Of a stretch of DNA of 64,000 bases, positions 28,379 to 64,000 are shown in pieces. How positions within the stretch are numbered: the first letter of the stretch is position 1; every line of letters begins with the position of its first letter. A model generated the notes under the pieces. The model had not been told where the DNA came from. It made no database searches and worked only from the letters and a program-made list of their open reading frames with translations. Origin of the DNA: Candidatus Aminicenantes bacterium (GTDB taxonomy: Bacteria > Acidobacteriota > Aminicenantia > Aminicenantales > Saccharicenantaceae); assembly GCA_041320535.1 (NCBI GenBank), contig JBGLNH010000001.1, positions 7,670 through 71,669 on the forward strand, written 5' to 3'. The position numbers and the translations under genes were made by a program.

Positions 28379-28379
28379 G

Positions 28380-46314: not shown

Positions 46315-46353
46315 CGAGGCTGACTCCGGCGGAATTCGCTCCTGAAAGGGCCT

Positions 46354-47895: not shown

Positions 47896-48006
47896 GCGTT
47901 GCCTCCTTCATGATATCGGCGGTCCGGAGAAAATGCAACTTCGGGCCACCCGGTTGGGATTGACTTTTGGCGCGATTTCAATAGAATTGAGTGCGGGAAG
48001 GTTGCG

Positions 48007-48141: not shown

Positions 48142-48214
48142 CCGGTCCGCCGGTCGCCCGGCCTGAGACGCGGCGTCCGGCCGGAGGTCCCGGGATGAGC
48201 GAGAGGGTCGAACG

Positions 48215-48412
48215 ATGAGCTTGGGGCTGACCGGGATACTCGTCGTCTTCGCGGCGTTCATCCTGCTGCTCATCCTCAATCCGAACATGTCGTGTTTCGG
48301 ACGGCGGATCAAGTCGCCGTTCTACCCGCTCCTGCGCAAAAAGCGTCTCAAAGGCCGGGACGGGAAAGGCGAGAAGAAGCCGCCGAAAACCGAAGATTAT
48401 GGCTTCCGCTAG
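48215..48412 (+). CDS. possible 65-aa membrane protein
   Basis: MSLGLTGILVVFAAFILLLILNP... hydrophobic N-terminus with a Lys/Arg-rich tail. Overlaps the start of the next gene by 14 nt. Confidence 0.3.
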   Translation: MSLGLTGILVVFAAFILLLILNPNMSCFGRRIKSPFYPLLRKKRLKGRDGKGEKKPPKTEDYGFR

Positions 48413-49091: not shown

Positions 49092-49954
49092 CCGCGCGGT
49101 CGTTCGCCAAGATCAACCTCGGTCTCGAGATCGTCCGGAAAAGGCCGGACGGCTATCACGACATCCGGACGCTCTTCCAGACCGTCACGCTCGCCGACGA
49201 GATCGACTTCGAGCCGGCCCCGGCCGGAGCGATCGAGCTCACGGGCGACGATCCTTCCGTGGCCTGGGACCGCACCAACCTCGTCGCCAGGGCGGCCCGG
49301 CTCCTTCTCGAGCGGACCGGGCGGCCGGCCGGGGCCAGGATCGCCGTCAGGAAGAGGATCCCGGCCGGCCGCGGCCTCGGCGGCGGAAGCTCGAACGCCG
49401 CGACGACCCTCCTCGTCCTGGACAAGATGTGGGGCCTCGGCCTGGGGGCCGACGCCCTGGCCCCCCTGGCGAGAAGCCTCGGGGCCGATGTCCCCTTTTT
49501 TCTCAAGGGGGGCCTCTGCCTGGGGGAGGAGATCGGGGACAAGCTGACGCCTCTCGCCGACCTGGAGCCCCTGGCCTGCCTGTTCGTCTTCCCCCCGTTC
49601 CCCATCGCCACGCCGTCGGTCTACGCCGGCGTCGGGCCAGCCTTGACTTCGACGGCCAAAGTCAGTAGAATTGAGCGCTTTCTGGAGTCCCGAGACTTCG
49701 GTCTCTTGGAAAACGACCTGGAGCGCGTCATTTTCCGGGCCCATCCCGAGCTCGAACGCTGGAAGAGTTTTTTCAGGGACGCGGGGGCCCTCGTCGCCCA
49801 GGTCAGCGGCTCGGGCTCGGCGGTGTTCGGGCTCTTCCCGGATCCGGCGAGCGGAGAGAGGGCGCGGAGGAGGCTCCCCGGCACGGCGGACGCCCGGCTC
49901 GCGGCGACGCTGCCGCGGCGGGGCTATTGGGCCCAGCTAGGCGCTGGGGCGTAG
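49088..49954 (+). CDS. ispE: 4-diphosphocytidyl-2-C-methyl-D-erythritol kinase
   Basis: MTARSFAKINLGLEIVRKRPDGYHDI... and GHMP motif PAGRGLGGGSSNAA. ATG 49088 overlaps the upstream stop. Confidence 0.9.
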   Translation: MTARSFAKINLGLEIVRKRPDGYHDIRTLFQTVTLADEIDFEPAPAGAIELTGDDPSVAWDRTNLVARAARLLLERTGRPAGARIAVRKRIPAGRGLGGGSSNAATTLLVLDKMWGLGLGADALAPLARSLGADVPFFLKGGLCLGEEIGDKLTPLADLEPLACLFVFPPFPIATPSVYAGVGPALTSTAKVSRIERFLESRDFGLLENDLERVIFRAHPELERWKSFFRDAGALVAQVSGSGSAVFGLFPDPASGERARRRLPGTADARLAATLPRRGYWAQLGAGA

Positions 49955-50015
49955 CCAAGCGGAAAGGCAACGGACTTTGGCTCCGTCATCGGAGGTTCGA
50001 ATCCTCCCGCCCCAG
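49945..50015 (+). tRNA. tRNA-Gln (anticodon UUG)
   Basis: Acceptor TGGGGCG/CGCCCCA, anticodon arm ACGGA-CTTTGGC-TCCGT, T arm GGAGG-TTCGAAT-CCTCC. No encoded CCA. Confidence 0.9.
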
Positions 50016-50044
50016 TTCGGACGATATAAGGCGAGGAAAGAGCG

Positions 50045-50974
50045 ATGAAGATATTCAGCGGATCGTCGAACCCGGCCCTGGCCCAGGAGATCGTCGACTA
50101 TCTCAAGACCGATCTCGGCCGCTGCGTCCTCAAGCGCTTCAGCGACGGCGAGATCCGTTTCTACATCGACGAGAACGTCCGCGGCGAGGACGTCTTCATC
50201 ATCCAATCGGGCTGCAGCGACGCGAACAGCCACCTCATGGAGCTGTTCATCATGATGGACGCCTTCAAGCGGGCGTCCGCCGGGCGCATCACGTCCGTCA
50301 TGCCCTACTTCGCCTACGCCCGCCAGGACTGGAAGGACAAGCCGCGGGTCCCGATCTCGGCCCGCCTCGTGGCCGACCTCATCGAGACGGCCGGGGCCGA
50401 CCGCGTCCTGGCCATGGACCTCCACTCGCCGCAGATCCAGGGCTTTTTCGGCATCCCCGTGGACAACCTCCAGGCCGCCCCGGTCCTGGCCAACCACATC
50501 CGGACGCTCAAGCTCGACGACCTGACGGTCGTCTCGCCCGACGCCGGCGGCGTGGGCCGGGCCCGGGTCTTCGCCAAGCGCCTCGACGCCCCGCTGGCCA
50601 TCATCGACAAGCGGCGCCCGGCGCCCAACACGGCCGAGGTCCTGCACGTCATCGGCGACGTCGCCGGCCGGAACGTCGTCCTCTACGACGACATGGTCGA
50701 CACGGCCGGCACGCTGACGCTGGGCGCCGAGGCCCTGCAAAAAGGCGGCGCCAAGCGGGTCTTCAGCGCCTGCACCCATCCCGTCCTGTCGGGGGCGGCC
50801 CTCGAGCGCATCGCCGCCTCGAAGCTCGAGCGCGTCCTCGTGACCAACACCATCCCCCTGAAGGACACCGCCGCCGCTTCCGGCCGCTTCACCGTCCTCT
50901 CGGTCGCCGAGCTCTTCGGCGAGGCCATCCGGAGGATCAACGAAGGAAGCTCGGTCAGCTCCCTTTTCGATTAA
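50045..50974 (+). CDS. prs: ribose-phosphate pyrophosphokinase
   Basis: 309 aa. MKIFSGSSNPALAQEI... and the PRPP-binding loop VLYDDMVDTAGT. Confidence 0.95.
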   Translation: MKIFSGSSNPALAQEIVDYLKTDLGRCVLKRFSDGEIRFYIDENVRGEDVFIIQSGCSDANSHLMELFIMMDAFKRASAGRITSVMPYFAYARQDWKDKPRVPISARLVADLIETAGADRVLAMDLHSPQIQGFFGIPVDNLQAAPVLANHIRTLKLDDLTVVSPDAGGVGRARVFAKRLDAPLAIIDKRRPAPNTAEVLHVIGDVAGRNVVLYDDMVDTAGTLTLGAEALQKGGAKRVFSACTHPVLSGAALERIAASKLERVLVTNTIPLKDTAAASGRFTVLSVAELFGEAIRRINEGSSVSSLFD

Positions 50975-50984
50975 GGAGTCCACC

Positions 50985-51683
50985 ATGAACATCGTCGTCA
51001 AGAGCGAGAAACGCCAGGGGCTCGGATCGAACGCCTCGCGCCGCCTGCGGGCCCAGGGCTTCGTCCCGGCCGTGCTCTACGGGGAAGGCCAGGAGGCCAC
51101 GCCCCTCGTCCTCGGCAAGAAGGACATCGTCCAGATCCTGAGGCTGGAATCGGGCGAGAACACCATCTTCAAGGTCGCCGTCGAGGCCGACGCCTACGAC
51201 GCGATGATCAAGGAGATGCAGATCGACCCGTCCACCGACGAGCTCCTCCACGTCGACCTCGTCCGCATCTCGATGGACAAGCCCATCCGGGTCACGGTCC
51301 CCGTCGTCCACCGCGGCGAGCCCGTCGGCGTCAAGACGGAGGGCGGCTTCATCGATTTCGTCACCCGCGAGATCGAGGTCGAGTGCCTGCCCCGGGACAT
51401 CCCCGAGAGCCTGGGGATCGACATCGCCGAGCTCCACATCGGCCAGTCGTTCAAGGTCCAGGCCATGGCCGTCCCGGCCGGGGCCAAGGTCCTGACCGAC
51501 CCCAACACCGTCCTCGTCCTCATCTCCATGCCGCACAAGGAAGAGGAGTTCCCCGGCGAGAAGCCGGAGGGCGAGGTCGCGGCCGAGGAGCCCAAGGAGC
51601 CCGAGGTCATCAAGAAGGAGCGGGCCGAGAAGGGCGAGCCCGAGGAGAAGGGCGGGAAGAAAGAGAAAGAGTCGGAGAAATAG
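50985..51683 (+). CDS. rplY: 50S ribosomal protein L25/general stress protein Ctc
   Basis: 232 aa. LRAQGFVPAVLYG motif and an acidic/Lys-rich C-terminal tail. Confidence 0.9.
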   Translation: MNIVVKSEKRQGLGSNASRRLRAQGFVPAVLYGEGQEATPLVLGKKDIVQILRLESGENTIFKVAVEADAYDAMIKEMQIDPSTDELLHVDLVRISMDKPIRVTVPVVHRGEPVGVKTEGGFIDFVTREIEVECLPRDIPESLGIDIAELHIGQSFKVQAMAVPAGAKVLTDPNTVLVLISMPHKEEEFPGEKPEGEVAAEEPKEPEVIKKERAEKGEPEEKGGKKEKESEK

Positions 51684-51686
51684 CCC

Positions 51687-52262
51687 TTGTGGCTGCTGGT
51701 GGGCCTGGGCAATCCGGGCGACGAGTACGCGGGGACCCGCCACAACGCCGGCTTCATGCTGGTCGAGCGGCTGGCGGCGGCCTGGGGCGTCGAGGTCCGG
51801 GGCCGGCTTTTCAAGGCCCGGACCGCCCTGGCCCGGAGGGGCGGGGAGGAGGTCCTCCTCGTCGCCCCCAAGACCTACATGAACCGGAGCGGGACGTCCG
51901 TCCGGGCGGCCCTGGAAGGCAAGGGCGTCCCGCCCGAGCGCCTGATCGTCGCCTACGACGACCTCGACATCCCGGCCGGCGAGGTCCGGGTCCGGAAGAG
52001 GGGCCGGCCGGGCACGCACAAGGGCATGATCTCGATCGCCGGCGAGGTCCGGACCGACGAGTTCCCCCGGGTCCGGATCGGCATCGGACCGCTCCCGGCG
52101 GGCCGGGACGCGGCCGAGTTCGTCCTCGAGCCTTTCAAGCGGGACGAACGCCGGCTCCTCGAGGACAGCCTGGGCGCCGCCGCCGAGGCCGTGGAGATGA
52201 TCCTCGACGGCCGCATCGAGCTGGCCATGACGCGGTTCAACCGCCGCTCCCCGGGCCGTTGA
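51687..52262 (+). CDS. pth: peptidyl-tRNA hydrolase
   Basis: TTG start. WLLVGLGNPGDEYAGTRHNAGF. Confidence 0.95.
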   Translation: MWLLVGLGNPGDEYAGTRHNAGFMLVERLAAAWGVEVRGRLFKARTALARRGGEEVLLVAPKTYMNRSGTSVRAALEGKGVPPERLIVAYDDLDIPAGEVRVRKRGRPGTHKGMISIAGEVRTDEFPRVRIGIGPLPAGRDAAEFVLEPFKRDERRLLEDSLGAAAEAVEMILDGRIELAMTRFNRRSPGR

Positions 52263-52263
52263 G

Positions 52264-52461
52264 CTCGATCCTTTTCCCCTTTCCGGGCCTCCCTCTCGAG
52301 GCGGCGAGGGGTTTTGCCTCGACGATCCCCGTAGCGGAAGGGGACCCGCGAAGCGGGGGAACCGCCGGGACTGGTTCCCAGGGGGTCCGGGGAGCTAGAG
52401 GCAATACCCTGAGCCAAAGCCGGAGAGAGGGACTTCCCGGAATCGGGATACGGCCCTTGAT
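52264..52461 (+). repeat. hairpin-rich intergenic repeat, copy A
   Basis: Core 52281-52442 aligns almost base-for-base with 57837-57996. Starts right after the pth stop. Confidence 0.85.
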
Positions 52462-52549
52462 ATTTCCGGGGAATCAGCTACAATGGCTCTTTTCCACTCC
52501 TTGTTCCTTCCGGAAGGGAAGGAGCTGTCGAAACCATAAGGAGGTCTCA
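52457..52549 (+). promoter_or_regulatory. candidate rpsF promoter and structured leader
   Basis: TTGATA (52457-52462), 16-nt spacer, TACAAT (52479-52484). Hairpin CTCCTT-...-AAGGAG at 52497-52524. AAGGAGG Shine-Dalgarno at 52538-52544. Confidence 0.35.
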
Positions 52550-52924
52550 GTGAGACAGTACGAAACGGGGTTCGTTCTCTCCCCCACGCTATCCGAAGAA
52601 GAGACGTCCCAGTTCCTCCAGCAGATGGCCGAGATCGTGGCCCAGAAGAAGGGCCGGATGGTCAAGCAGGACGTCTGGGGCAAACGCCGCCTGGCCTTCC
52701 CCATCAAGCGGTTCCAGGAGGGCTTTTACGTGTTCTTCACCTTCGACGGCCCCGGCGACGTCGCTCCGGAGCTGGAGCGCCGGTTCAAGCAGACCGACGC
52801 CGTCATCCGTTTCATGACCGTCGTCAAGGACCCGCGGGACCTCGTCCGGCGGAAGAAGAAGAGGCGGGCCGAAGAGGCCGCCGCGGCCGCCGAGCCGAGA
52901 GAGGAGAAGCGAGATGCCGCGTGA
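52550..52924 (+). CDS. rpsF: 30S ribosomal protein S6
   Basis: GTG start 52550. [18 protein letters not shown]... with a basic/acidic tail. Confidence 0.9.
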
Positions 52925-53180
52925 AGACAGACCCGAACGGAGCGAGCGCGGCGGCTACCGCAAGTACTTCGCGCCCAAGAGGAAGTTCTGCCGGTTCTGC
53001 CAGAGGGACGTCCGGGGCATCGATTACAAGGCCGTCGACATCCTGAAGAAGTACATCCCGGACCGCGGCAAGATCACGCCCCGCCGGATCACCGGGACGT
53101 GCGCCTTCCACCAGAGGAAGCTGACCCTGGCCATCAAGCGGGCCCGGCTCATGGCCCTCCTGCCCTACGTCGAGGACTGA
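52914..53180 (+). CDS. rpsR: 30S ribosomal protein S18
   Basis: ...[55 protein letters not shown]. Confidence 0.95.
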
Positions 53181-53181
53181 G

Positions 53182-54672
53182 ATGAAAGTCATCCTGAAAC
53201 AGGACGTGGAGAAGCTGGGCCGCCGCGGCGACGTCGTCAACGTCGCCCCCGGATTCGGCCGCAACTATCTCATCCCCCGCAAGATGGCCCTGGCCGTCAC
53301 CCAGACGAACATGAAGACGATCGAGATCGAGCGCCAGGCCCTAGTTTTAGGGCCGGATGCGAGGCGGGGAGAGAAGAAGGACGCGGTCATGACGCGAGAG
53401 AGCGCGGTCGAAAGGAGGAGCGTCCTCCTCTACAACGTCTACCGGCTCGTCGTCCTGACCTCGCTGCTCGTCTCGGCCTTCATCATCCAGCTGTCCTCGC
53501 CCGAGACCCAGCCGAACCCGCCTTTCTATTACCTCGTCCTGGGCGCCTACGGCTTCGCCGCGCTCTTCTTCGCCCTCTACGCCGCGGGCCGGTTCCTCGC
53601 CGCCCAGGCCTACGTCCAGGTCGTCTTCGACCTCGTCCTCATCACGGCCTTCGTCTACATCTCCGGCGGCATCGCCTCGTCGATGTATTTCCTCTACCTC
53701 TTCCCGATCATCGCCGCGGGCCTGGTCATCTCGGGGCGGGCCGGCTTCCTGGCCGCGTCCCTCTCGGCCATCCTCTTCGGGGGGCTCGTCGACGGCGTCC
53801 ACTTCGGGCTCATCCCCAGCTTCCGCCCCGAGCACGCCGTCCGGACGACGCTCGGCTCGATGCTGGTGACCATCTTCTTCGCCTGGAGCGTCTTTTTCGT
53901 CATCGCCGCGCTGATGAGCAAGCTGGCCGGCGGCCTCCGCCGAGCCCGCGAGGCCCTGCGGGCGGCCGAGAGGGAGCTCCTCCTCCGGGAGCGCCTGGCC
54001 GAGGCCGGCCGCGTCTCGGCCAGCCTGGCCCACGAGATCCGCAACCCGCTGGCGGCCATCTCCGGCTCGGTCCAGGTGCTCCGCAAGGAGCTGGACCTGA
54101 CCGACGAGCAGCGGGAGCTCATGGCCATCGTCCTCAAGGAGTCGGAGCGCGTCTCCCAGAGCCTGGAGCAGTTCCTCGATTTCGCCCTTCCGGCCAAGCA
54201 GGTCTTCGCCCCGATCAACCTGAGGGACATCCTCGACGAAACGCTCAAGATCCTCCGAAGCGGGGGGGAGCTCAACGGCCAGGTCGAGGTCACGGGGAAC
54301 TTCCGCGCGTCCGACGTCCCCTATTACGGCAACGCCGGCCAGTTCAAGCAGATCTTCTGGAACCTCATCAAGAACGCCGTCAAGGCCATGCCCGAGGGCG
54401 GCCGGCTCCGGCTCGACTTCACCGAGCCGCGGAAGAAGGAGGTCGGCATCCTCGTCGCCGACACGGGGAAGGGGCTGTCCGAGGCCGACAAGGAGCACCT
54501 CTTCGAGCCCTTCTACACCGGCTTCGAGAACGGCCGTGGCCTGGGGCTGTCGATCGTCCGCAAGATCGTCGACGACTACGACGGCCGGATCGAGGTCCGC
54601 TCCGAGCTCCGTCAAGGGACGGAAGTCCTGATCACCCTGCCGCCGCGGAAGGCCGCGGCCCCGGGGAGATGA
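53182..54672 (+). CDS. single ORF fusing the ribosomal protein L9 N-terminal domain (about 53 aa) to a PilS-like 6-TM sensor histidine kinase
   Basis: Residues 1-53, MKVILKQDVEKLGRRGDVVNVAPGFGRNYLIPRKMALAVTQTNMKTIEIERQA, match the L9 N-domain. From ATG 53389 (MTRESAVERR...) come TM helices, H-box SLAHEIRNPLAAI, N-box NLIKNAVKAM and G-boxes. No stop codon lies between the two parts. Confidence 0.8.
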   Translation: MKVILKQDVEKLGRRGDVVNVAPGFGRNYLIPRKMALAVTQTNMKTIEIERQALVLGPDARRGEKKDAVMTRESAVERRSVLLYNVYRLVVLTSLLVSAFIIQLSSPETQPNPPFYYLVLGAYGFAALFFALYAAGRFLAAQAYVQVVFDLVLITAFVYISGGIASSMYFLYLFPIIAAGLVISGRAGFLAASLSAILFGGLVDGVHFGLIPSFRPEHAVRTTLGSMLVTIFFAWSVFFVIAALMSKLAGGLRRAREALRAAERELLLRERLAEAGRVSASLAHEIRNPLAAISGSVQVLRKELDLTDEQRELMAIVLKESERVSQSLEQFLDFALPAKQVFAPINLRDILDETLKILRSGGELNGQVEVTGNFRASDVPYYGNAGQFKQIFWNLIKNAVKAMPEGGRLRLDFTEPRKKEVGILVADTGKGLSEADKEHLFEPFYTGFENGRGLGLSIVRKIVDDYDGRIEVRSELRQGTEVLITLPPRKAAAPGR

Positions 54673-54676
54673 CGCC

Positions 54677-56092
54677 ATGGAAACGATCCTCATCATCGAC
54701 GACGAGAAGAGCCTCCTCGACCTGCTCACGGTCGTCTTCAAGAAGGAGGGCTACGCGGTCAAGACCGCGCCCACGGCGGCCGGCGGCTTCGAGATCCTGT
54801 CCAAGCAGGACGTCGACCTCGTCGTCACGGACATCAAGATGCCCGGCGCCGACGGCATGGACGTCCTGCGCTACACCCGGGAGAACCTGCCCGACCTGCC
54901 CGTCATCCTGATCACGGCCTACGGCAGCATCGCCCAGGCCGTCGAGGCCCTCAAGGCCGGGGCCCTCGACTACGTCGTCAAGCCCTTCGACGTCGAGGAG
55001 CTGAAGATCATCGTCGGCCGGGGCCTGGCCGCCCGGCGCCTCCAGCAGGAGAACCTCCTCCTCAAGCGCGACCTCAAGGGCCGCTACGGCTTCGAGCAGA
55101 TGATCGGCAAGAGCCGGGCCATGCAGGAGATCTACATCCTCATCGAGAAGATCGCCTCGACCGACTCGACCGTGCTCATCACGGGGGAGAGCGGGACCGG
55201 CAAGGAGATGGCCGCCCGGGCCGTCCACCTGCAGGGGGCCCGCCGCGACCACCCCTTCGTCTCCATCAACTGCGCCGCCCTGCCCGAGAACCTCCTCGAG
55301 TCGGAGCTGTTCGGCCACGTCCGGGGCTCGTTCACGGGGGCCGTCTCGGACAAGAAGGGCATGTTCGAGCTGGCCCAGCGCGGCACCCTCTTCCTCGACG
55401 AGGTCGGGGAGATGTCGCCCTGGACCCAGGTCAAGCTCCTGCGGGCCCTCCAGGAGCGCAAGGTCCGCCGGGTCGGCGGGGCCGACGAGATCCCGGTCGA
55501 CGTCCGGATCATCGCCGCGACCAACCAGGACCTGAAGAAGAGGATCCAGGAGGGCAAGTTCCGCGAGGAGCTCTACTACCGGCTCAACGTCATCTGCGTC
55601 GACATGCCGCCCCTGCGGAAGAGGATCGAGGACATCCCGCTCCTCATAGCCCACTTCCTCCAGAAATACTGCGAGAAGATGGGCAAGAACCCGAAGCGGT
55701 TCACGCCCGAGGTCGTCGGCCTCCTCGAGGGCTACCCCTGGCCGGGCAACATCCGGGAGCTCGAGAACGTCATCGAGCGCATCGTGGCCATCGAGGACCG
55801 CGAGACGGTCACCGCGAGCTGCCTGCCCCAGGAGATCGTCTCCCCAAGGAAGAGGAAGCTCGACACCCAGGAGCTCTTCGCCCCCGGGTTCAGCCTGACC
55901 CAGCACCTCGACGAGATCACCAAGAAATACATCCAGGAGGCCCTGGCCGTCACCGGCGGCAGCCTCCAGAAGGCGGCCCCCCTCCTGGGCCTGAGCTACC
56001 GGACCATCCGCTATCTTATCGGCAAGTACGACCTCAACCAGGTCCGCAAGGCCGAGCGGCGGAACGGCAACGGCGATCGCAACCCCGCCTGA
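54677..56092 (+). CDS. sigma-54-dependent response regulator (PilR/NtrC family)
   Basis: Receiver (DIKMPGADG), GESGTGKE, GSFTGA loop and C-terminal HTH. Confidence 0.9.
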   Translation: METILIIDDEKSLLDLLTVVFKKEGYAVKTAPTAAGGFEILSKQDVDLVVTDIKMPGADGMDVLRYTRENLPDLPVILITAYGSIAQAVEALKAGALDYVVKPFDVEELKIIVGRGLAARRLQQENLLLKRDLKGRYGFEQMIGKSRAMQEIYILIEKIASTDSTVLITGESGTGKEMAARAVHLQGARRDHPFVSINCAALPENLLESELFGHVRGSFTGAVSDKKGMFELAQRGTLFLDEVGEMSPWTQVKLLRALQERKVRRVGGADEIPVDVRIIAATNQDLKKRIQEGKFREELYYRLNVICVDMPPLRKRIEDIPLLIAHFLQKYCEKMGKNPKRFTPEVVGLLEGYPWPGNIRELENVIERIVAIEDRETVTASCLPQEIVSPRKRKLDTQELFAPGFSLTQHLDEITKKYIQEALAVTGGSLQKAAPLLGLSYRTIRYLIGKYDLNQVRKAERRNGNGDRNPA

Positions 56093-56113
56093 TAGTCAAA
56101 AAGTGTCAAAAAC

Positions 56114-56160
56114 GACAATTTATGGCGACATTTTTCCTGCCCAGACCCGGACAATTTATG
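56114..56160 (+). promoter_or_regulatory. direct repeats GACAATTTATG, candidate enhancer (UAS) sites
   Basis: Identical 11-mers at 56114-56124 and 56150-56160, with related AATTTATA at about 56181, located 40-90 nt upstream of the sigma-54 promoter. Confidence 0.35.
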
Positions 56161-56200
56161 CAATTCATTTAATATCTATAATTTATACGGCATAGAAATT

Positions 56201-56216
56201 TGGCACGCTTATTGCT
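56201..56216 (+). promoter_or_regulatory. sigma-54 (-24/-12) promoter of the prepilin gene
   Basis: TGGCAC-GCTTA-TTGCT exactly matches TGGCAC-N5-TTGCW. It lies downstream of a sigma-54 activator gene. Confidence 0.75.
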
Positions 56217-56292
56217 ATAACAGTGGTGCCAACTATGAGTGGCAAAGCAACCCGGCTGAGGAGATCAGCCAGGGAATTTCAAGGAGGTTCAA

Positions 56293-56880
56293 ATGCTTAA
56301 AAAGATGAGAGGTTTCACCCTCATCGAGCTGCTGATCGTCGTGGCGATCATCGGCATCCTGGCTGCCCTTCTTATCCCCAACGCCCTGTCCGCCCTGCAG
56401 AAGGCCAAGCAGAAGTCGGCCATGAAGGAGATCATGACGATCTCCACGGGCGCCACCGACTTCATCACGGACAACGGCGATTGGGAGACCGCGGACCCCG
56501 CAGTCGCGCACGCCGGGCCGATCCAGGCCGCCGGCGACACCTTCGTCGTGGCCATCTCGCCCTTCTACGTCAAGTCCTGCCCGGTCAACGACCCCTGGGG
56601 CAATCCCTATGAGGTCCACCTGGGCGACGACGCGGTCGTGGCCATCCTGACCAACGTCGACGCCGACCAGCTCGGCGGCGAGGACTTCCTGATCTGGAGC
56701 TGGGGCCGCGGCGGCGAGGACGACGGCGGCGACTTCCAGGTCGGCGACTACAATCCCGCCGAGCCTGCCGGCACCCTCTATCTCGTCAACGGCATGGAAG
56801 ACTTCATCAACGACCTGGCTGCCTGGTCGGGCAACTGGATCGTCGCTCCCCGCACGAGCGCTGCCGGCGGCAACGGCTGA
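56293..56880 (+). CDS. type IV pilin / pseudopilin with class III (prepilin) signal
   Basis: MLKKMRG|FTLIELLIVVAIIGILAALLIP (G-1, F+1, E+5). AAGGAGG Shine-Dalgarno upstream. Confidence 0.9.
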   Translation: MLKKMRGFTLIELLIVVAIIGILAALLIPNALSALQKAKQKSAMKEIMTISTGATDFITDNGDWETADPAVAHAGPIQAAGDTFVVAISPFYVKSCPVNDPWGNPYEVHLGDDAVVAILTNVDADQLGGEDFLIWSWGRGGEDDGGDFQVGDYNPAEPAGTLYLVNGMEDFINDLAAWSGNWIVAPRTSAAGGNG

Positions 56881-56907
56881 TCTTAGCGGAACACACAAGC
56901 ACCTGAC

Positions 56908-56938
56908 AAGGGGCGGCTTCGGCCGCCCCTTCTTTTTT
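56908..56938 (+). terminator. rho-independent terminator after the pilin gene
   Basis: AAGGGGCGGC-TTCG-GCCGCCCCTT stem-loop followed by CTTTTTT. Confidence 0.8.
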
Positions 56939-56967
56939 GCCCGCTTTCTCTATATAATCCCCCCGCC

Positions 56968-57738
56968 TTGATACGAAGCGCCGCCGTCGCCCTCTATTTC
57001 CTCCTGGTCGTCCTCCTCCTCACTCCCTTCATCCTCCTCTGCGTCCTCGCCGGCTGGCGCGCCCCCCTCTTCTCCGCCGGGGTCGCCGCGGCCCGCCTGG
57101 CCCGCCGCATCCTGGGCGTCGAGGTCGAGGCCTCGGGGCTCGGGCGGCTCGATCCCCGGACGCCCTATGTCTTCATGCCCAACCACCTGAGCTTCCTCGA
57201 CGGTCCGCTGGTCATGGTCCTCATCCCGGGCGCGCCCCGGGTCATCCTCAAGAGATCCGTTCTCAGCGTGCCCATCGCCGGACTGGCCATGCGCCACGTC
57301 GGGTTCGTGGCGGTCGACCGCAAGGGCGCCGAGGGCGGCAAGCGGAGCATCGCCCGGGCCGCCGCTCTCATGCGCGAGCGGGGCTACTCGTTCCTGATCT
57401 TCCCCGAGGGGACGCGGAGCCGGGACGGCCGGCTGGGGCCATTTCGCCGGGGCGGGTTCTTCCTGGCCCTGGCCGCCGAGGCGCCCATCGTCCCGGTGAC
57501 CGTCCGGGGCACGTTCGAGCTGATGCCCAAGGGGCAGTGGTTCGCCCGCCGGGGCCGGGTCCGCATCCTCTTCCACGACCCGGTCCCCGTCGCCGGGCGC
57601 TCGGCAGTGGACATGCCTCTTATCATGGAGAAGGTTAGGACGGCTATCCTCTCGGGATGCGGCCCGTCAGGGGAGGAAGGGCCCGCGACGAGGGGCGGGG
57701 GCGACACGGCCGATGGCTCGCCGACGGGCAAGAGATGA
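56968..57738 (+). CDS. plsC: 1-acyl-sn-glycerol-3-phosphate acyltransferase
   Basis: NHLSFLDG (HX4D) and FPEGTRS motifs. TTG start. Confidence 0.85.
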   Translation: MIRSAAVALYFLLVVLLLTPFILLCVLAGWRAPLFSAGVAAARLARRILGVEVEASGLGRLDPRTPYVFMPNHLSFLDGPLVMVLIPGAPRVILKRSVLSVPIAGLAMRHVGFVAVDRKGAEGGKRSIARAAALMRERGYSFLIFPEGTRSRDGRLGPFRRGGFFLALAAEAPIVPVTVRGTFELMPKGQWFARRGRVRILFHDPVPVAGRSAVDMPLIMEKVRTAILSGCGPSGEEGPATRGGGDTADGSPTGKR

Positions 57739-57770
57739 GCAGGGCGACGGCCCCCGGGGGAGGACGAACG

Positions 57771-58640
57771 ATGGCCGCGGAACGGAAGGCGCCGAATTTC
57801 GGGGGAATCGACGGAAAAAAAGGTTCTTCTCCGATCTCCGGGATACCCTCTCGAGGCGGGGAGGGAATTCGCCTCGAAGATCCCCGTAGCGGAGGGGGGC
57901 CCGCCGCAGGCGGGGGAACCGACGGGACTGGTTCCCAGGGGGTCCGGGGAACTAGAGGCGATTCCCGACCGGAAGCGCAGAGAGGGACTTCCCGGAAATG
58001 GGAGAAGAACCGGAAAAAAACGGCCTCCGGGATAAAGGCGGTTTCGACGGCGTCGGGCATCCAAGGGTCACCGTCTCCGCGGCCGGACGCCGTCCAGGCC
58101 GACGAGCTTCACGCTATCCTCGAGGCCTTCCTGAGGGACCGCGGCGCGGCCCTCGAAGCGGCGGTCGCGGCCGTCGCGTCGAGCCTCGACGCCGGGGGCA
58201 AGGTCCTCGTCTTCGGCAACGGCGGCAGCGCCGCCGAAGCCCAGCACTTCGCCGCCGAGCTCGTCAACGGCTTGGCCCGGCACGACCGCCCGCCCGTCGC
58301 GGCCCTGGCCCTGACCGCCGACACCGCGTCCCTTACGGCCATCGGCAACGACCGCGGCTTCGCCGAGGTCTTCGGCCGTCAGGTCGAGGCGCTGGGCCGT
58401 CCCGGCGACGTGGCCCTGGCCCTGACGACGAGCGGCGCCTCTCCCGACGTCGTCGAGGGCCTGCGGGCGGCCCGCCGGAAGGGCCTGGTCACGATGGCCC
58501 TGACCGGCGAGGGAGGCGGGGAGGCCGGGCGGCTGGCGGACCACCTTCTCGACGTCCCGTCACGTTCGACGCCCCGCGTCCAGGAAGCGCACCTCTTCAT
58601 CCTCCACCTCATGGCCGCCCGGCTCGAATCGGCGCGCTGA
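57771..58640 (+). CDS. gmhA: phosphoheptose isomerase (SIS domain, GmhA-like) with a repeat-encoded N-terminal extension
   Basis: SIS motifs GKVLVFGNGGSAAEAQHFAAELV, TAIGND, TTSGASP and RVQEAH from about 58090. The only in-frame canonical start with a Shine-Dalgarno (GGAGGA 57759-57764) is ATG 57771, upstream of repeat copy B. Confidence 0.75.
   Translation: MAAERKAPNFGGIDGKKGSSPISGIPSRGGEGIRLEDPRSGGGPAAGGGTDGTGSQGVRGTRGDSRPEAQRGTSRKWEKNRKKTASGIKAVSTASGIQGSPSPRPDAVQADELHAILEAFLRDRGAALEAAVAAVASSLDAGGKVLVFGNGGSAAEAQHFAAELVNGLARHDRPPVAALALTADTASLTAIGNDRGFAEVFGRQVEALGRPGDVALALTTSGASPDVVEGLRAARRKGLVTMALTGEGGGEAGRLADHLLDVPSRSTPRVQEAHLFILHLMAARLESAR
57812..58020 (+). mobile_element. hairpin-rich repeat copy B with MITE-like termini
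   Basis: GGTTCTTCTCC (57822-57832) and its exact reverse complement GGAGAAGAACC (58001-58011), bracketed by CGGAAAAAAA at 57812-57821 and 58011-58020. Core 57837-57996 matches copy A. Confidence 0.7.
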
Positions 58641-58661
58641 AGCGTCTCCAGCCCCTCAAAA

Positions 58662-58855
58662 GATCAAAGGGTTCTCTCATTGACCATGGGCTTCAGCTGG
58701 ATGATCGGCCAGGAGCTCAAGGCGCGTGTCGGGACATGGACCGCCCCGGTACGTGCCCCATAGACCTCACCCGGAAACACTTACTGGAAGTCCATGTCCC
58801 CGGTCCCTGGGCCATCTGCACCACACAAGATCGAAGAGAACCGATCAAGGTTCTT
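58662..58855. repeat. nested inverted-repeat element in a non-coding, lower-GC stretch
   Basis: Inner 11-bp inverted repeat GGGACATGGAC (58731-58741) / GTCCATGTCCC (58790-58800). Outer GGTTCTCT (58670-58677) / AGAGAACC (58835-58842). GATCAA at both outer flanks. Confidence 0.35.
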
Positions 58856-58904
58856 GTCCCTACCCCGGGCCGCCTCGATTCGTGAAGAGTTCAGGCTAGA
58901 AAGC

Positions 58905-59000
58905 GGGGGGAGTTGCCTCGACGATTCGGGTCCGTGGAGGGGGATGCGGCGGGGAGGGGAGTTCTCACCCTGAGCCGGAACCCGAGAGAGAAACCTCGCA
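58905..59000 (+). repeat. degenerate or internally deleted relative of the repeat family (copy D)
   Basis: Shares ...ttgcctcgacgat... and ...accctgagccggaacccgagagag... with copy A but lacks the central hairpins. Confidence 0.4.
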
Positions 59001-59093
59001 GAGGGCTCGGAGCGACAGGCGTGTTTCAGCTTAGGAGAAGCAGTACTCTGGGCGGCGAGACGGGACGGAAAGATCAGATGACTTGGCCCCGGG

Positions 59094-59711
59094 TCAGCGC
59101 TCGGGCTGCGCCGTTCTCTTCTTGGCCGCGGCGCCCTTGGCCATCTGGGCCTCGATCCGGGCCTGCTGGGCCTGGGCCTTGACCAGACGCTGGTTGGTAT
59201 CGTCGAGCTGCTGCTGGATGACGTAGCCGGGGACCATGGCGTCCTGGAACTCGAACTGCTGGCGCAGGGCGTTCATCTTGGTCGTCAGGAGGTCGACCAG
59301 GTCCTTGGCCGCTTCGAGCTGGGCCTCGAGGGAGCCGCCCGGGCCTTCCTGGTCGCGGTTGGCCTCGCCGGTGATGAGCGGGCCTTCAGGGCCGACCTTG
59401 GGGACAATGCGGCGGCCCGAAGGGGCTCCGGACCCCGAAGGCAGGCTGACCCCTTCTTCCCCGGATACGCTCGAGGGCTCGATCGCGTCTTCGCCCAGGG
59501 CCTCGTCCGCGATCTCCGGCTCGGGCTCGACGATCTGGATGGCCGGCGCCTTCTGGACGCGCAGGAGGTCGGCGTTCCTGATGACCGCGGCGCTCCTGCC
59601 CCTGAGGGCCTCGCGGCGGGCCTTTTCCTTCTTGGCCAGCTCAGCCAGCGACTGGGCGCCGAGCGAGGCGGCGAGTCCCAGGACGGCGATGAATACGAGC
59701 GTTCTCTTCAT
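59094..59711 (-). CDS. hypothetical secreted coiled-coil protein
   Basis: 205 aa. Signal MKRTLVFIAVLGLAASLGAQS and Gln/Ala-rich heptad regions. Downstream of the PilY1-like gene. Confidence 0.5.
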   Translation of the reverse strand: MKRTLVFIAVLGLAASLGAQSLAELAKKEKARREALRGRSAAVIRNADLLRVQKAPAIQIVEPEPEIADEALGEDAIEPSSVSGEEGVSLPSGSGAPSGRRIVPKVGPEGPLITGEANRDQEGPGGSLEAQLEAAKDLVDLLTTKMNALRQQFEFQDAMVPGYVIQQQLDDTNQRLVKAQAQQARIEAQMAKGAAAKKRTAQPER

Positions 59712-59735
59712 GTTGGACCCTGTCCCATTATCTCC

Positions 59736-59770
59736 CCCCTTCCGCCGCGTGTCAAACGCGGCGGAAGGGG
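59736..59770 (-). promoter_or_regulatory. 14-bp perfect intercistronic hairpin
   Basis: CCCCTTCCGCCGCG (59736-59749), 7-nt loop, CGCGGCGGAAGGGG (59757-59770). Lies between the PilY1-like stop and the next start, with no U-tract. Confidence 0.4.
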
Positions 59771-59784
59771 GCTCGACGTTGCTT

Positions 59785-62700
59785 TTACCAGATGATCCTG
59801 TAGACCTCGCGCCAGGACTTGATCCGCAGGAGCGACCCGATGGGCTGCTCCAGCTTCTCCAGGGTCGAGTCGTATTCCTGGACGTAGATCTCGCGCTTGT
59901 TGACCCGGCCGGCGACGCGCTCGGCCTCGCCGACCGTAACGGCCCGGCGGGCCTTGCTGATGAGGTCGAGGTACTCGGGCGGCGTCCCCGAGGTCGTCTT
60001 GAAGGCCGTGCCGCCGACCGGGATCATCGACGTGTAACGGACGTAGCGGGCGTAGAGCCGGCCGGCGTCGCCCAGGTTGACGCAGGGGTTGACGGCCTCG
60101 ATGCTGCCGCGCAGGGTGCTGAAGTAGACGACCTGGTCGGCGATGACCGGGTCGGCCCAGACCTTGCTGCCGAGCCCGAGATCGCCCCGCTGGTAGCTCG
60201 AGCTCAGATCGAGGCGCGCGGGGACGCCGAGATACCATTCGACCGAAACGGCGTTGCCGCCGTTGTCGATGAGACCGACGAACGAGTAGTCCCGGTCGGC
60301 GGGCGCTGCGTCGTCGCCGCCTGTCCCGAAGTAGACCCGGGCCCGGGCCGGGCCGCCCTCCAGGGGATCGACCCAGACGGCCGGCCTGGTGACGATCGGG
60401 TAGTAGAGGTAATCGGTGTAGATGGCCGAGAGGTTCCACTGGCCGGCGTTCGTGCCCCGGACGTCGACGCGGTAGAGGCGCCCGTCGAGGTCGCCGACGT
60501 AGACCGAGTCGAGGAAGCCGTCCCGGTCGAGGTCGACGGCGGTTGGCGAGCCGGGGATGGTGGCCACGATATTGGGGTATCGATAGGCCGAACGGGCCCC
60601 GCCCAGGCTCGACGTGTCGATCGGGGAGATCGCGGCCGTGTATTGGAGGACGGTGCCGTCGCCCACGCGGACGGCGTAGAACCTGCGGCCGAGAGGATAG
60701 GTGCTGGACCTGACGTTGTCGTATCCGGAGCCCATGAAGGCCACCCATGTGGCGACTCCCCCGGGGTTGGCCTTGCCGATGGCCGGCGTCGACCAGGTCT
60801 CTCCCATGGTCGGGTAGGTCCGGTTGCCGGACCTGTAGGTGTGCGTGAGCTCCCAGAGCGGCTGTGGATCGGTCGGGTCGGTGACGTCGAGGGCCCAGTA
60901 GTAGTTCACGGCACCGGCGACGTTGCCGCTCCCGATCGTGCTGCCGCTGCCCGGCCCCTGGCCGGTGATGAGGACCGTCCGCCAGGAGCCGTTGATCTGG
61001 ACGTCGGCGACGGCCGGCGTGCCGTCGCAGTAGACGTCGTGGGCGTAGAAGCGGCTGTTGTTCGCGGCGTCGACGGCGTACATGTTCCTGAGCTTGGGCA
61101 GGAGGTTGAACGGGATGAAACCCCACAGCTCATCGCCCGTGGCGGCGTCGAAGCAGTGGAGCATGCCGTCGTTGGCCCCGACGTAGATGACCTTCGGCCG
61201 CGCGGCGTAGGCCGTCCTGAACTCGGCGTAGCCCGTGCCCATGTAGGCCGCGTCCTCCGACGGCGGCCCGACGACGACCGGGGTCGAGTGGTTGATGTCG
61301 CCCAGCCGCCAGTAACGGTCGGCCCCGCGGACGAAGTCGATCAGGCCGGCGTTGTTGTTCTGGAAATCGTTGAGGTAGGGGGCCAGGGTGGCGACATTGG
61401 CCCGCCTGAATTCGACCCGGTTGGGAGGGTTGACGGGCGGATTGCCCGGCCGGACGGCCGCGTAGATCGTCCGGGCATCGGGATCGCGGTCCTGGAGCAG
61501 CTGCCCGGCGTCCCAGAAGACCTCGGCCCCCTCGATCAGTGTCCGCCCGGTCGCGGCGTCGAGGTCCGAAGTGGTGATGGTCTGGAGCTCTGAGGTGGCC
61601 GAGGCGGTGAAGGCGACGGCCGAGACGTCGTAGGCCCGGATCTGTCCCTCCCAGCCCGGGAAGACGAAGGACGAGCCGATGACCAGCTTCTTGTTGAGGC
61701 CGCTCGAAGTGACGATGGTCGCGGCGGCCGAGGCGCGGGAGTACTCCCGGCGGTCGACATAGATGAACTCGATCTCGAGGGCCCCGACGTAGGGGGTCTC
61801 GAACGAGGCGTTCTGGTAGTCGGCCATAAGGTCCTCCTCGGCGGTCAGGACGATCCGCCAGCGGAGGTCGGCCCCGAAGTTCTTGAAGTCGTACCAGGGC
61901 AGGTTCGACGCCGGGACGATCCCGGCGTCGGAGAACGTCTGATAGGTCTCCCAGCTCCGGCCGCCGTTGTTGGAGAAGAGCAGCTCGACGGCCAGGCCGG
62001 CGCTCGAGCCGCCGAAAACGCCTTGGCGGATGGAGCTCACGCGGACGCGGGTGATGGCGTGGAGCCGGGGGTCGAGGAAGCCCTGGCCGATGTTGGTCGA
62101 CTGGGCCCGGCCGTAGAGTTCGTAGACGTTGGCCAGCTCGTTCTCGATGTAGTAGTAGTCGCCCGAGTGGTTGGCGTCGGCGATGACGATGTCCATGTCC
62201 CCGTCGAAGTCGTAGTCGAGGGGCGTGGCCATGTCGATGTCGTACGGCGAGGGGGTCGGGGACTGGCAGGCGTTGAGGCACTGGAAGAGCCAGTCGACCT
62301 CGCCGGCGACGACGCCGCGGTTGCGCAGGAACCAGATGCGGGACTGGGTCGTCCCGCCGCGGTAGGCCCGGTCGGTGGCCACGAAGATGTCCGGCCGGCC
62401 GTCGCCGGTGAAATCGTCGGTCATGATGCCGACCGTGCCGACGCAGGTCGCGTCGGGGATGGCGATCTCGTTGCGGGTGAATTGGCCGGTGCCGTCGTTC
62501 TCGTAATAGACGAGGAAGGCGGCCGTTCCGACCGAGCCGGCGACCACGTCGAGGTCGCCGTCGCCGTCGAAGTCGCCGGCGGCCACGGCCGACCCGCCGG
62601 GCAGGCCGGCGTAGCCCGTTCGGGCGTCGTAGGAAAGCTCGGCGACGTCCCAGGCGGCCAGGTTGAAGTTCCCGGCCCCGGGATTCCTCAAGAGGAAGAT

Positions 62701-63474
62701 CTGGTCCCGGCTGATGGCCAGGATGTCGATGTCGCCGTCCCGGTCGAGGTCCACGGAGTGGAGGTGGTTGGCCGCCCAGTAGAGGTAGATCGGGACGGCC
62801 TGGAAGCGGGCCGTGAAATCGAGGTTGGGGAAGGCGTTGTATTGCTTGAAGTCGGGGTCGTCGGCCGTGCCCGTGTTGATGTACATGGCGGCCAGGAAAT
62901 TGGTGTAGCCGTACTGGTCGGACGAGTTGCGCATGTAGAAGAAGTCGAGCAGCCCGTCGCCGTTGTAGTCGCCGACCGTGAGCGAGGCCGGGCCGGTGTG
63001 GTTGTTCCACCGGTCGTAGGAGGTCGACATGTCGACTCCGAAGAGCGGCGTCGCGCCCGCGTTCGCGGGATAGAGGTTGCGGATGAGCCGGAGCTCGGAC
63101 CAGGGCTGGCCGGCGACGACGGGGAACTCGCCGCTGATGTCGAGGCCGACGAGGTCGGGGTAGCCGTCGTTGTCGAAGTCGCCCGAGGCGCACTGGTAGA
63201 TCCGGCGGCCCATCCTGTCGGCGGCGCCGACGACGAAGTTCGAGCCCAGGCGCGGCAGCGTGATCGGCCCCGAGGGCCAGTTGGCGACGGAGCTGGCCGC
63301 CATGTCCTTGTAATTGGTCGTGCCGAAGTTCTCCCCGAAGGCCCGCGTGTATTCCGTGCAGGCCTGGACGGCCTGCGGCCAGAGGCGCGGCGCGAGGACG
63401 GCCGCGGCCACGGCGACCGCGAGACAGGCGAGAACGGCAAGGCTCCCTTGGCGCGTCAAGCCTTTGTTCTTCAT
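59785..63474 (-). CDS. PilY1-like pilus tip adhesin with N-terminal FG-GAP/VCBS beta-propeller
   Basis: 1229 aa with a signal peptide. At least six DxDxDG-type repeats (GDFDNDGYPDLV, GDYNGDGLLDFF, DLDRDGDIDIL, GDFDGDGDLDVV, DDFTGDGRPDIF, YDFDGDMDIVI). C-terminal PilY1 signatures NDGMLHCFDAATGDELWGFIP and DLDRDGFLDSVYVGDLDGRLYRVD. Confidence 0.85.
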   Translation of the reverse strand: MKNKGLTRQGSLAVLACLAVAVAAAVLAPRLWPQAVQACTEYTRAFGENFGTTNYKDMAASSVANWPSGPITLPRLGSNFVVGAADRMGRRIYQCASGDFDNDGYPDLVGLDISGEFPVVAGQPWSELRLIRNLYPANAGATPLFGVDMSTSYDRWNNHTGPASLTVGDYNGDGLLDFFYMRNSSDQYGYTNFLAAMYINTGTADDPDFKQYNAFPNLDFTARFQAVPIYLYWAANHLHSVDLDRDGDIDILAISRDQIFLLRNPGAGNFNLAAWDVAELSYDARTGYAGLPGGSAVAAGDFDGDGDLDVVAGSVGTAAFLVYYENDGTGQFTRNEIAIPDATCVGTVGIMTDDFTGDGRPDIFVATDRAYRGGTTQSRIWFLRNRGVVAGEVDWLFQCLNACQSPTPSPYDIDMATPLDYDFDGDMDIVIADANHSGDYYYIENELANVYELYGRAQSTNIGQGFLDPRLHAITRVRVSSIRQGVFGGSSAGLAVELLFSNNGGRSWETYQTFSDAGIVPASNLPWYDFKNFGADLRWRIVLTAEEDLMADYQNASFETPYVGALEIEFIYVDRREYSRASAAATIVTSSGLNKKLVIGSSFVFPGWEGQIRAYDVSAVAFTASATSELQTITTSDLDAATGRTLIEGAEVFWDAGQLLQDRDPDARTIYAAVRPGNPPVNPPNRVEFRRANVATLAPYLNDFQNNNAGLIDFVRGADRYWRLGDINHSTPVVVGPPSEDAAYMGTGYAEFRTAYAARPKVIYVGANDGMLHCFDAATGDELWGFIPFNLLPKLRNMYAVDAANNSRFYAHDVYCDGTPAVADVQINGSWRTVLITGQGPGSGSTIGSGNVAGAVNYYWALDVTDPTDPQPLWELTHTYRSGNRTYPTMGETWSTPAIGKANPGGVATWVAFMGSGYDNVRSSTYPLGRRFYAVRVGDGTVLQYTAAISPIDTSSLGGARSAYRYPNIVATIPGSPTAVDLDRDGFLDSVYVGDLDGRLYRVDVRGTNAGQWNLSAIYTDYLYYPIVTRPAVWVDPLEGGPARARVYFGTGGDDAAPADRDYSFVGLIDNGGNAVSVEWYLGVPARLDLSSSYQRGDLGLGSKVWADPVIADQVVYFSTLRGSIEAVNPCVNLGDAGRLYARYVRYTSMIPVGGTAFKTTSGTPPEYLDLISKARRAVTVGEAERVAGRVNKREIYVQEYDSTLEKLEQPIGSLLRIKSWREVYRIIW

Positions 63475-63497
63475 GGCGATTCCCCTTTCGGCGGGTC

Positions 63498-64000
63498 TCA
63501 GGACCCAACCTCGATGACGATCTCGAGACGTTTGAAGGTGTTCCGCGGCCCCCGGCCGATGCAGACCAGGATGCAGTCCCGGTCGTCGGCGGCGATCGTC
63601 CCCGGGGCCTCGTCGTTGATGAGGAAGACCGTGAACGAGCAGCGCGGGTCGGTGGCCAGCGGCTCGGAGCTGAACAGGGCCGGGTTGGCCGCCGTGTTGT
63701 CCGCTTCGACGTCGGCGACGAGCTGCTCGTCGGTCAGGCTCCGGAAATAATTCGGGCTGGCCGGGTCGTCGAGGCCCGGGGCGCCCGCGAAGTTCGTCCG
63801 GTACTGGGCGCCGAAGTCCGACGTCACGCGGTTGAGGAAATTGTCGTTGAGGACGATCCAGGCGGCGTTGAAGCCGGATTCGGCGGCGTCGAAGGCCATG
63901 CTCTGGAGCCTCATGCTGTCGGCGGCCTTGGGGCTGGTGCCCGTGACGGTCACCAGGAGCATGCCCACGGCCAGCATGAAGGCCACGATCATGATGATGA
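63498..64000 (-). CDS. PilX-like minor pilin/pilus assembly protein; 5' end beyond the right window edge
   Basis: The frame stays open to the window end (...IIMIVAFMLAVGMLLVTV hydrophobic N-terminal helix). Sits immediately upstream of the PilY1-like gene. Confidence 0.5.
   Translation of the reverse strand, partial: IIMIVAFMLAVGMLLVTVTGTSPKAADSMRLQSMAFDAAESGFNAAWIVLNDNFLNRVTSDFGAQYRTNFAGAPGLDDPASPNYFRSLTDEQLVADVEADNTAANPALFSSEPLATDPRCSFTVFLINDEAPGTIAADDRDCILVCIGRGPRNTFKRLEIVIEVGS

Follow-up and report, generated by a model that had tools for sequence, protein, structure and literature searches.

A probable family of miniature inverted-repeat transposable elements with a conserved three-way junction in Candidatus Aminicenantes

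A 64,000-nucleotide (nt) stretch of a Candidatus Aminicenantes genome (contig JBGLNH010000001.1, positions 7,670 to 71,669; hereafter the window) carries a 190-base pair (bp) repeat, copy B, at 57822-58011 in the 5' coding region of the isomerase gene gmhA. Copy B is very probably a non-autonomous DNA transposon, or MITE (miniature inverted-repeat transposable element), from a family that has not been described before and that abounds in Candidatus Aminicenantes. This is the origin proposed for it in an earlier, sequence-only reading of the window, and it agrees with three results: terminal repeats are present in other copies, the target duplications are copy-specific, and orthologous loci of relatives lack the insertion. 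All testable features of a MITE were found except a parent insertion sequence (IS), which was not identified.

The window contains three strong copies of the family (A, B and C) and one weak copy (D), as determined by BLAST and by a covariance model of the family (R1). Copy B and the gene around it comprise the following features:

57735 to 58640, plus strand: gmhA, which contains copy B and encodes a SIS-domain D-sedoheptulose-7-phosphate isomerase; its ATGAGC start at 57735 overlaps the plsC stop codon.
57813 to 57821, no strand: target-site duplication on the left of copy B, GGAAAAAAA; adding the C before it gives the 10-mer described earlier.
57822 to 57843, plus strand: left terminal inverted repeat, a 22-nt arm with 91% complementarity; the first 11 nt (GGTTCTTCTCC) are perfect.
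57855 to 57978, plus strand: structured interior, an inverted repeat with covariation in which an inner stem (57864-57875 / 57955-57966) closes a three-way junction; R1 score 115.6 bits.
57881 to 57950, plus strand: conserved core of approximately 70 nt, with a UCCCCG/CGGGGA closing helix, a CCCGCC-loop-GGCGGG hairpin, a GGAACC-9 nt-GGUUCC hairpin and G-rich joining strands.
57990 to 58011, plus strand: right terminal inverted repeat; the last 11 nt (GGAGAAGAACC) are perfect.
58012 to 58020, no strand: right target-site duplication, GGAAAAAAA.

Read directly, the sequence has the flanking 10-mer CGGAAAAAAA at 57812-57821 and 58011-58020, and the 11-mer GGTTCTTCTCC at 57822-57832 with its exact reverse complement GGAGAAGAACC at 58001-58011, all as originally described. 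The C at 58011 is common to the right end and to the right direct repeat and so counts in both features, leaving an unambiguous flanking repeat of 9 bp (GGAAAAAAA); in a repeat search, this direct repeat has a period of 199 nt. The 11-mers themselves are the tips of 22-nt arms (57822-57843 / 57990-58011) that are 91% complementary in the same kind of search: the perfect 11-bp match stands, but as the outermost part of pairing that extends much further. When folded, the 209-nt unit gives a single long, nested hairpin (-117.6 kcal/mol, z = -6.5 relative to shuffles), and the opposite strand folds nearly as well. The element has a 73% G+C content and includes no open reading frame (ORF) able to encode a transposase. 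The footprint of copy B exceeds chance, because its ends, and flanking repeats specific to each copy, are seen again throughout the family (described below). A 10-mer of the left arm (CTCCGGGATA, 57836-57845) recurs exactly at 58025-58034, just past the right target duplication; this second occurrence is either fortuitous or left over from an older fragment there.

Contigs from one genome per species were searched with a 22-nt core pattern (20 specified bases). This search recovered 107 stretches, nearly all of them from Candidatus Aminicenantes metagenome-assembled genomes (MAGs), often with 10-25 per MAG; a single Streptomyces match looks like chance. R1 identifies 102 copies in 710 kb of family loci and gives three strong matches in the window. 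There are two kinds of copy: type I resembles the copies of the window, and type II has the same core in a different, longer stem (GGACGCYRCCCGGGCWGTGAYGGGG...CCAAAACGGGYRGCGTCC). Ends were scored as present if they had no more than two mismatches to GGYTCTTCTCC at the expected places, for which the chance rate is 3% per end:

Type I: both ends in 18 copies, one end in 16, neither in 43.
Type II: both ends in 1 copy (L096), one end in 1, neither in 21.

The end GGYTCTTCTCC(C) recurs across genomes, and full copies span 171-206 bp (most of them 187-194 bp). In the 19 copies that have both ends, left and right flanks were compared by their best 9-mer match, with 2000 random re-pairings as the control. 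Flanks of the same copy match at 6.63 of 9 positions on average, against 4.96 +/- 0.31 when re-paired, and none of the 2000 permutations reaches the observed value; a match of at least 8/9 is found in seven copies, where 0.8 would be expected. The flanking repeats are A-rich, T-rich or mixed depending on the copy, and because their sequences vary in this way they are not a conserved motif. Examples, the last four from an independent metagenome set, are:

L017, copy at 609-801: TTTTTTGT, a perfect 8-mer.
L051: TTTCTTTT.
L049: ATTTTTT.
L102: TTATATT.
L019: TAATCTT.
L116: AAATAAAA/AAATAAAA, a perfect 8-mer.
L124: A8/A8, a perfect 8-mer.
L127: a T-run.
L115: TATAAATT/TATGAATT.

The family duplication is approximately 8 bp in length at A/T-rich targets, and is 9 bp in copy B. 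Tabulated across the family, the terminal repeats recur and the duplications are specific to each copy, a pattern that favours a MITE.

The same ends also enclose different interiors. They bound a 526-bp unit (L106:1186-1711) and a 290-bp unit (L115:884-1173) that have in common an interior of another kind (the L106 unit was searched against Rfam and has no match), and in L096 a type II interior lies between terminal repeats. A further example is present in the window, downstream of gmhA:

58670 to 58842, no strand: second small element, 173 bp, with related ends (GGTTCTCT / AGAGAACC) and an unrelated hairpin interior.

The ends of this element, read in the sequence, do resemble the terminus of copy B, as had been suggested. 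It is flanked by GATCAAAG (58662-58669) and GATCAAGG (58843-58850), a repeat that matches at 7 of 8 positions, and it is inserted right against the start of the decayed copy D. No further copy of it was found in approximately 1 Mb of fetched DNA.

Insertion can be compared with the uninserted state at the locus of copy A, which lies between pth and rpsF:

52259 to 52266: left duplication remnant of copy A, TTGAGCTC, which holds the pth stop codon.
52267 to 52456, plus strand: copy A, 190 bp, an older insertion with decayed ends; model match at 52300-52421, 122 bits.
52457 to 52464: right duplication remnant of copy A, TTGATATT, a putative rpsF -35 box.

Copy A is 83% identical to copy B over 180 nt. 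Degradation is evident in both the ends (GATCCTTTTCC / GGATACGGCCC) and the duplication (TTGAGCTC / TTGATATT), in agreement with the earlier suggestion that copy A is an older, decayed insertion. Between pth and rpsF, the window has a spacer of 288 nt; three related species, whose Pth is 84-86% identical, have spacers of 88, 88 and 165 nt. In an alignment, the two 88-nt spacers (L151 and L152) have a single TTGATTTT exactly at the site of copy A; the pth stop codon is inside this single TTGATTTT, which aligns with the TTGATA of the window that we read, from its sequence, as a likely rpsF -35 box. The target 8-mer is duplicated in the window, where TTGAGCTC still gives the pth stop and TTGATATT still gives the putative -35 box. 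Upstream of rpsF, in the window (52457-52550) and in all three relatives (L151-L153), there are a conserved promoter-like TTGATA-16 nt-TACAAT and a conserved leader (CTTTTCCACTCCTTGTTCCTTCC...GGAGCTGTCGAAACCATAAGGAGG). The longer spacer (L153:2091-2257) contains, besides a mini-palindrome (GACCCTTTTCTCC-GGAAAAGGGATC), pieces like ATTCCGGGA with a resemblance to element ends; these may be an internally deleted remnant at the site of copy A.

For copy B, the closest available relative is L108, with 91% nucleotide identity in the flanking genes. The element is absent from L108 and from four other relatives (L109-L112), and R1 is silent at the relatives' loci compared for both A and B. The plsC and gmhA genes overlap in L108, abut in L109, and have 179 nt between them in L110 and L111. 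L108 also lacks 365 bp that follow gmhA in the window and hold both the 58670-58842 unit and copy D; the window spacer that includes D (58646-59094) is replaced by 83 nt in L108. In the proposed search for empty sites, relatives have a single TTGATTTT in place of copy A and are also without copy B; a clean single-target site was not obtained for copy B.

Copy B does not lie between genes; it is in the 5' coding region of gmhA, the frame of which is open from 57735 through the whole element to the stop at 58640. The ATGAGC start overlapping the plsC stop mirrors the MS... start in L108, and there is no in-frame ATG, GTG or TTG between copy B and the conserved SIS domain. In same-species contigs, public annotation gives a 289-amino acid (aa) SIS protein that reads through the element, with a called start that matches the ATG at 57771 (GGAGGA 6 nt upstream). 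Copy B adds exactly 66 codons. Deletion of 198 nt in silico yields a protein of normal length from 57735, and deletion of the exact 199-nt period yields one from the ATG at 57713 instead; a 1-nt slip may have occurred in the A-run at copy B. We infer that gmhA is translated through the element. Copy B appears to have entered the poorly conserved N-terminal tail of the protein, where the insertion would be tolerated because the frame stays open.

The presence of copy B is well supported by other assemblies. The region 55094-63713 is 99.8-99.9% identical in two independent same-species contigs, copy A is present in four, and R1 finds both copies in same-species contigs. Copy B is real and is fixed in this species.

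Conservation in the family is highest in the interior and not at the ends. The four helices of this interior were placed by hand and tested on an alignment fitted to the model (A7); RNAalifold alone mis-paired the invariant core. In A7, 97.2% of cells pair, compared with 85.8 +/- 0.3% in shuffles (0/500), and cells in which both sides have changed number 398 against an expected 109. As a control, sliding the partners by 1-3 columns reduces pairing to 40-65%, and an alignment that was not fitted to the model (A2) shows 96.4% pairing versus 86.9%. The inner stem is 12 bp in length, with covariation at every pair. The compensatory exchanges in the core are U-A to C-G in the junction-closing helix (YCCCCG/CGGGGR: C-G 73, U-A 21) and A-U to G-C in one hairpin (GGRACC/GGUYCC: A-U 77, G-C 18); the other hairpin (CCCGCC/GGCGGG) has loops of very different lengths. 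There are 78 G-U cells and 35 A-C cells, an excess of G-U that points to the G-rich strand as the folding strand. When orthologous copies of different species are compared, identity in the part of the core not covered by the search pattern is 92%, against 75-86% for the arms and 73-82% for the surroundings. The core had been called conserved, and it is; shared descent alone does not describe it, as it is a structured module that diverges more slowly than the arms and that occurs also without inverted-repeat ends.

Searches of Rfam 15 gave no match at the gathering score in the window or in 15 loci and nothing credible at E values up to 10; one type II copy and the 526-bp L106 relative were likewise without matches. 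The literature searches returned nothing relevant on Aminicenantes in connection with MITEs or RNA motifs or on the terminal-repeat strings, and nothing useful on ISL3-derived MITEs. Hammerhead and twister ribozymes were considered for the core and dropped: their consensus motifs are absent, and Rfam is silent. The variable core hairpin (for example at 57900-57915 and 52345-52358 in the window) often has GNA triloops closed by C-G, and type II copies have CUUG or CUYG tetraloops in this hairpin. The core hairpin of copy A contains GCGAAGC, which we take to be a very stable DNA mini-hairpin motif. These loops hint that the folding of single-stranded DNA should be considered besides that of RNA.

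The family is best explained by cut-or-copy transposition, with a transposase that would be supplied in trans. Such an enzyme would recognise the GGYTCTTCTCCC ends, which extend into an imperfect inverted repeat of approximately 22-31 bp, and the unit of approximately 190 bp would insert into A/T-rich 8-mers with duplication of about 8 bp (9 bp in copy B). The element is predicted to fold into a long hairpin with the conserved three-way junction of approximately 70 nt at its tip. Since this module is present both in the type II stem without ends and, in L096, as a type II interior between ends, it probably functions as a structured unit, one that the transposon has captured or carries as cargo. 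Our best guess is that it acts as RNA on the G-rich strand. A more far-reaching proposal, which we put forward tentatively and regard as possible rather than probable, is that Aminicenantes have in this junction a novel class of structured RNA with a function (or of single-stranded DNA acting strand-specifically). The module would bind a protein or a ligand or be catalytic; it would be present as dozens of paralogues per genome, spread with the MITE as its vehicle, and kept under purifying selection after insertion.

The sequence-only reading had stated that no transposase is present in the window, and this was checked for part of its length: contigs matching 28268-31562, 41687-53342 and 55094-63713 encode no Pfam transposase. 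No larger unit bounded by these ends was found in the DNA searched. Pairs of the terminal-repeat motif 600-4000 bp apart, with and without a filter for duplications, were only chance pairs in coding DNA; a search with a long terminal-repeat consensus returned small elements only; and a generic search for IS-like inverted-repeat pairs returned none. A scan of metagenomes with the terminal-repeat pattern gave 27 stretches, all of them MITEs, small elements or solo ends. Viral contigs gave four chance matches to the terminal repeat and none to the core, and BLAST against plasmids gave E values of 2 or greater.

Several points weigh against a MITE, or against a functional module within it. More than half of the copies, including almost all of type II, are without recognisable terminal repeats or duplications, so that mobility by this route is established for a subset of the family only. 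Neither the approximately 1 Mb of fetched DNA nor the metagenome scan, viral contigs or plasmids yielded an autonomous element or transposase with these ends. A clean empty site could not be reconstructed for copy B, because the N-terminal tail of gmhA is too diverged to align with that of L108, and copy B is fixed in all available same-species contigs with no within-species polymorphism seen. The G+C content of the element also differs from that of the AT-rich MITEs usually described (PMC6382973). With respect to the interior, the comparison of orthologues is biased, in that both members had to match the core pattern, and gene conversion among copies could explain the conservation of the core. 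Templated quasipalindrome correction can mimic compensatory change, and hence covariation, in long palindromes. A search for a promoter-like site at the core found none. The elements lie at random in either orientation with respect to neighbouring genes (11-13 same, 12-15 opposite), as counted in two ways, by a simple gene caller and by a flank-frame method, both of which are crude; by the same crude calls, 24-32 elements lie between convergent genes and 12-16 between divergent ones.

An unlikely alternative is that the family consists of non-mobile genes for structured noncoding RNAs, in which the outer helix (GGUUCUUCUCC / GGAGAAGAACC) and the A-rich flanks would be parts of the RNA and the copies would be paralogues. 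The strong covariation, the conserved non-palindromic core, the slower divergence of this core than of its surroundings and the G-U excess on one strand all agree with such genes, as do type II copies, which have no terminal repeats or duplications and are found at orthologous sites in different species. For copies with terminal repeats, the proposal is already contradicted: their flanking repeats are copy-specific, can be T-rich or mixed as well as A-rich, and match within a copy far better than between copies; orthologous sites in relatives are empty, with a single copy of the target; and the same ends surround unrelated interiors. There is also no Rfam family, conserved promoter or orientation bias. 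Less likely still is a palindrome of the repetitive extragenic palindromic (REP), bacterial interspersed mosaic element (BIME) or REPIN type, either spread by an IS200/IS605-like enzyme of the REP-associated tyrosine transposase (RAYT) type or kept as a host DNA-binding site, which would make the ends and duplication of copy B a coincidence. As with REPs, the copies here are numerous, rich in G+C and imperfectly palindromic, most lie in intergenic DNA, and they are enriched between genes that converge; terminal repeats are missing from many copies, and other REP-like palindromes are present in the same MAGs. To our knowledge, REP and REPIN elements have neither target duplications nor conserved terminal repeats of this kind, whereas both have statistical support here. 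The unit is also approximately 190 bp in length with a branched, asymmetric tip, as opposed to a palindrome of 20-40 nt, and no RAYT gene was seen, though none was looked for.

We give very little credence to the idea that the family is a peptide-coding palindromic element, like those of Rickettsia, specialised for in-frame insertion. It would account for the position of copy B inside gmhA, where the 66 added codons include no stop and the product annotated by gene callers is the fused 289-aa protein. The high G+C content of the element is enough to make uninterrupted frames frequent, however: in five of the six frames, 30-55% of copies are open. The 66-aa element peptide has only 2 matches among 1.84 billion representative proteins, indels in loop length break any frame, and most copies are intergenic. 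The copy in gmhA therefore looks, on the sequence evidence, like an isolated and tolerated insertion, not a coding element. It is just as improbable that copy B reflects a fortuitous resemblance or misassembly at a repeat. The window does depart from near-identical public contigs at 53342, and another same-species contig (L150) diverges inside copy C; because of these two discrepancies, assemblies of this organism are unreliable at some junctions. The support for the B region in two independent contigs and for copy A in four, and the statistics for the family as a whole, argue against such an artefact at copy B.

Taken as a MITE, the element has much in common with those described from other bacteria, such as MITEAba12 of Acinetobacter, Correia/NEMIS of Neisseria, RUP of S. 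pneumoniae and Nezha of cyanobacteria. These too are small and without a transposase gene; they have terminal inverted repeats, short duplications and a preference for A/T-rich targets, and they exist as many copies of which only some have intact ends and duplications. Correia elements fold into a long hairpin, as does this element. MITEAba12 has duplications at 40% of its copies and prefers AT-rich sites (PMC6382973). Unlike in these MITEs, the most conserved part here is an interior, non-palindromic three-way junction that is found also in copies without ends; there is no known parent IS, and the host belongs to an uncultured phylum. A second comparison is with mobile insertion cassettes, in which IS-type ends surround passenger DNA without a transposase. 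The use of the same ends around different interiors (the 190-bp unit, the 290-bp unit of L115, the 526-bp unit of L106, the 58670-58842 element and the type II module of L096) is similar, the difference being that the passenger here is a structured module of approximately 125 nt and not a protein gene.

GG tips with a duplication of about 8 bp are characteristics that the family shares with ISL3, IS6/IS26, IS256 and IS1595. The IS6 end signature (GG...cTGTt...caaa; PMC7986276) consists of GG tips with cTGTt and caaa motifs inside them. Derivation from IS6/IS26 was rejected, as the ends read GGTTCTTCTCCCGATTTC and have no CTGTT...CAAA. ISL3 elements prefer A/T-rich targets, generate 8-bp duplications and have ends starting with GGCTCTT. 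The duplication length, target preference and GGYTCTTCTCC-type tips (GGYTCTT) of this family agree with these features, and ISL3 is presumably a candidate parent; no transposase was recovered and assignment to a family is not possible. The element resembles REP/BIME/REPIN and enterobacterial repetitive intergenic consensus (ERIC) sequences in being abundant, GC-rich, imperfectly palindromic and mostly located between genes, often convergent ones, and both may be retained by the host; it is unlike them in its conserved terminal repeats and target duplications, larger unit and branched asymmetric tip. As with Rickettsia palindromic elements, one copy (B) lies in frame in a protein-coding gene; unlike in those elements, it does so as an isolated instance that does not characterise the family.

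The remaining copies in the window are the following:

28230 to 28353, minus strand: copy C, which has the core and stems, shows no recognisable terminal repeats and lies between convergent genes; 98.7 bits.
58849 to about 59043 (right boundary uncertain), plus strand: copy D, strongly decayed, beginning GGTTCTTGTCCC; 12.4 bits, E about 1.

Repeats seem to coincide with assembly or rearrangement breakpoints in this organism. Two public contigs (L144/L145:11656) are 99.9% identical to the window over 41687-53342 and then continue through intact rplI, dnaB and radA, while at 53342 the window breaks inside rplI (after ...IEIERQAL) and passes into the upstream region of a histidine kinase gene, at a small palindrome (GGCCCTAGTTTTAGGGCC). 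Either the DNA has been rearranged, or one of the assemblies is joined chimerically here. L150, a 3.19-Mb same-species contig, matches the window (99.6%) only over 28268-31562 (L150:8587 and 11881); one breakpoint is inside copy C, where half of the element is fused to an OsmC-like gene, and the other is inside an antiporter gene. The window also has paralogous gene blocks at 11719-13548 and 53975-55779 that are 71-74% identical, the downstream one encoding a PilS-like histidine kinase and a sigma-54-dependent response regulator. In other genomes, a different REP-like palindrome (CAGAATTGTGGC...GCCACAATTCTG and variants) is found beside or inside copies of the element (L001, L008 and L132, for example L132:847-1104); in L132, it takes the place of part of the core.

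The MITE footprint of copy B is in itself ordinary, and what it adds is a first described family of mobile repeats for a large uncultured phylum. For annotation, the family is a concrete cause of inflated or fused ORFs, as illustrated by gmhA, which is called with 66 element-encoded residues, and it may account for some assembly breakpoints at repeats. Of greater interest is that the best-conserved part is an asymmetric folded junction and not the ends to which a transposase would bind. If the junction is indeed a functional RNA, the family would offer a clear example from bacteria of a DNA transposon that spreads a structured RNA module, and the module would constitute a new class of RNA.

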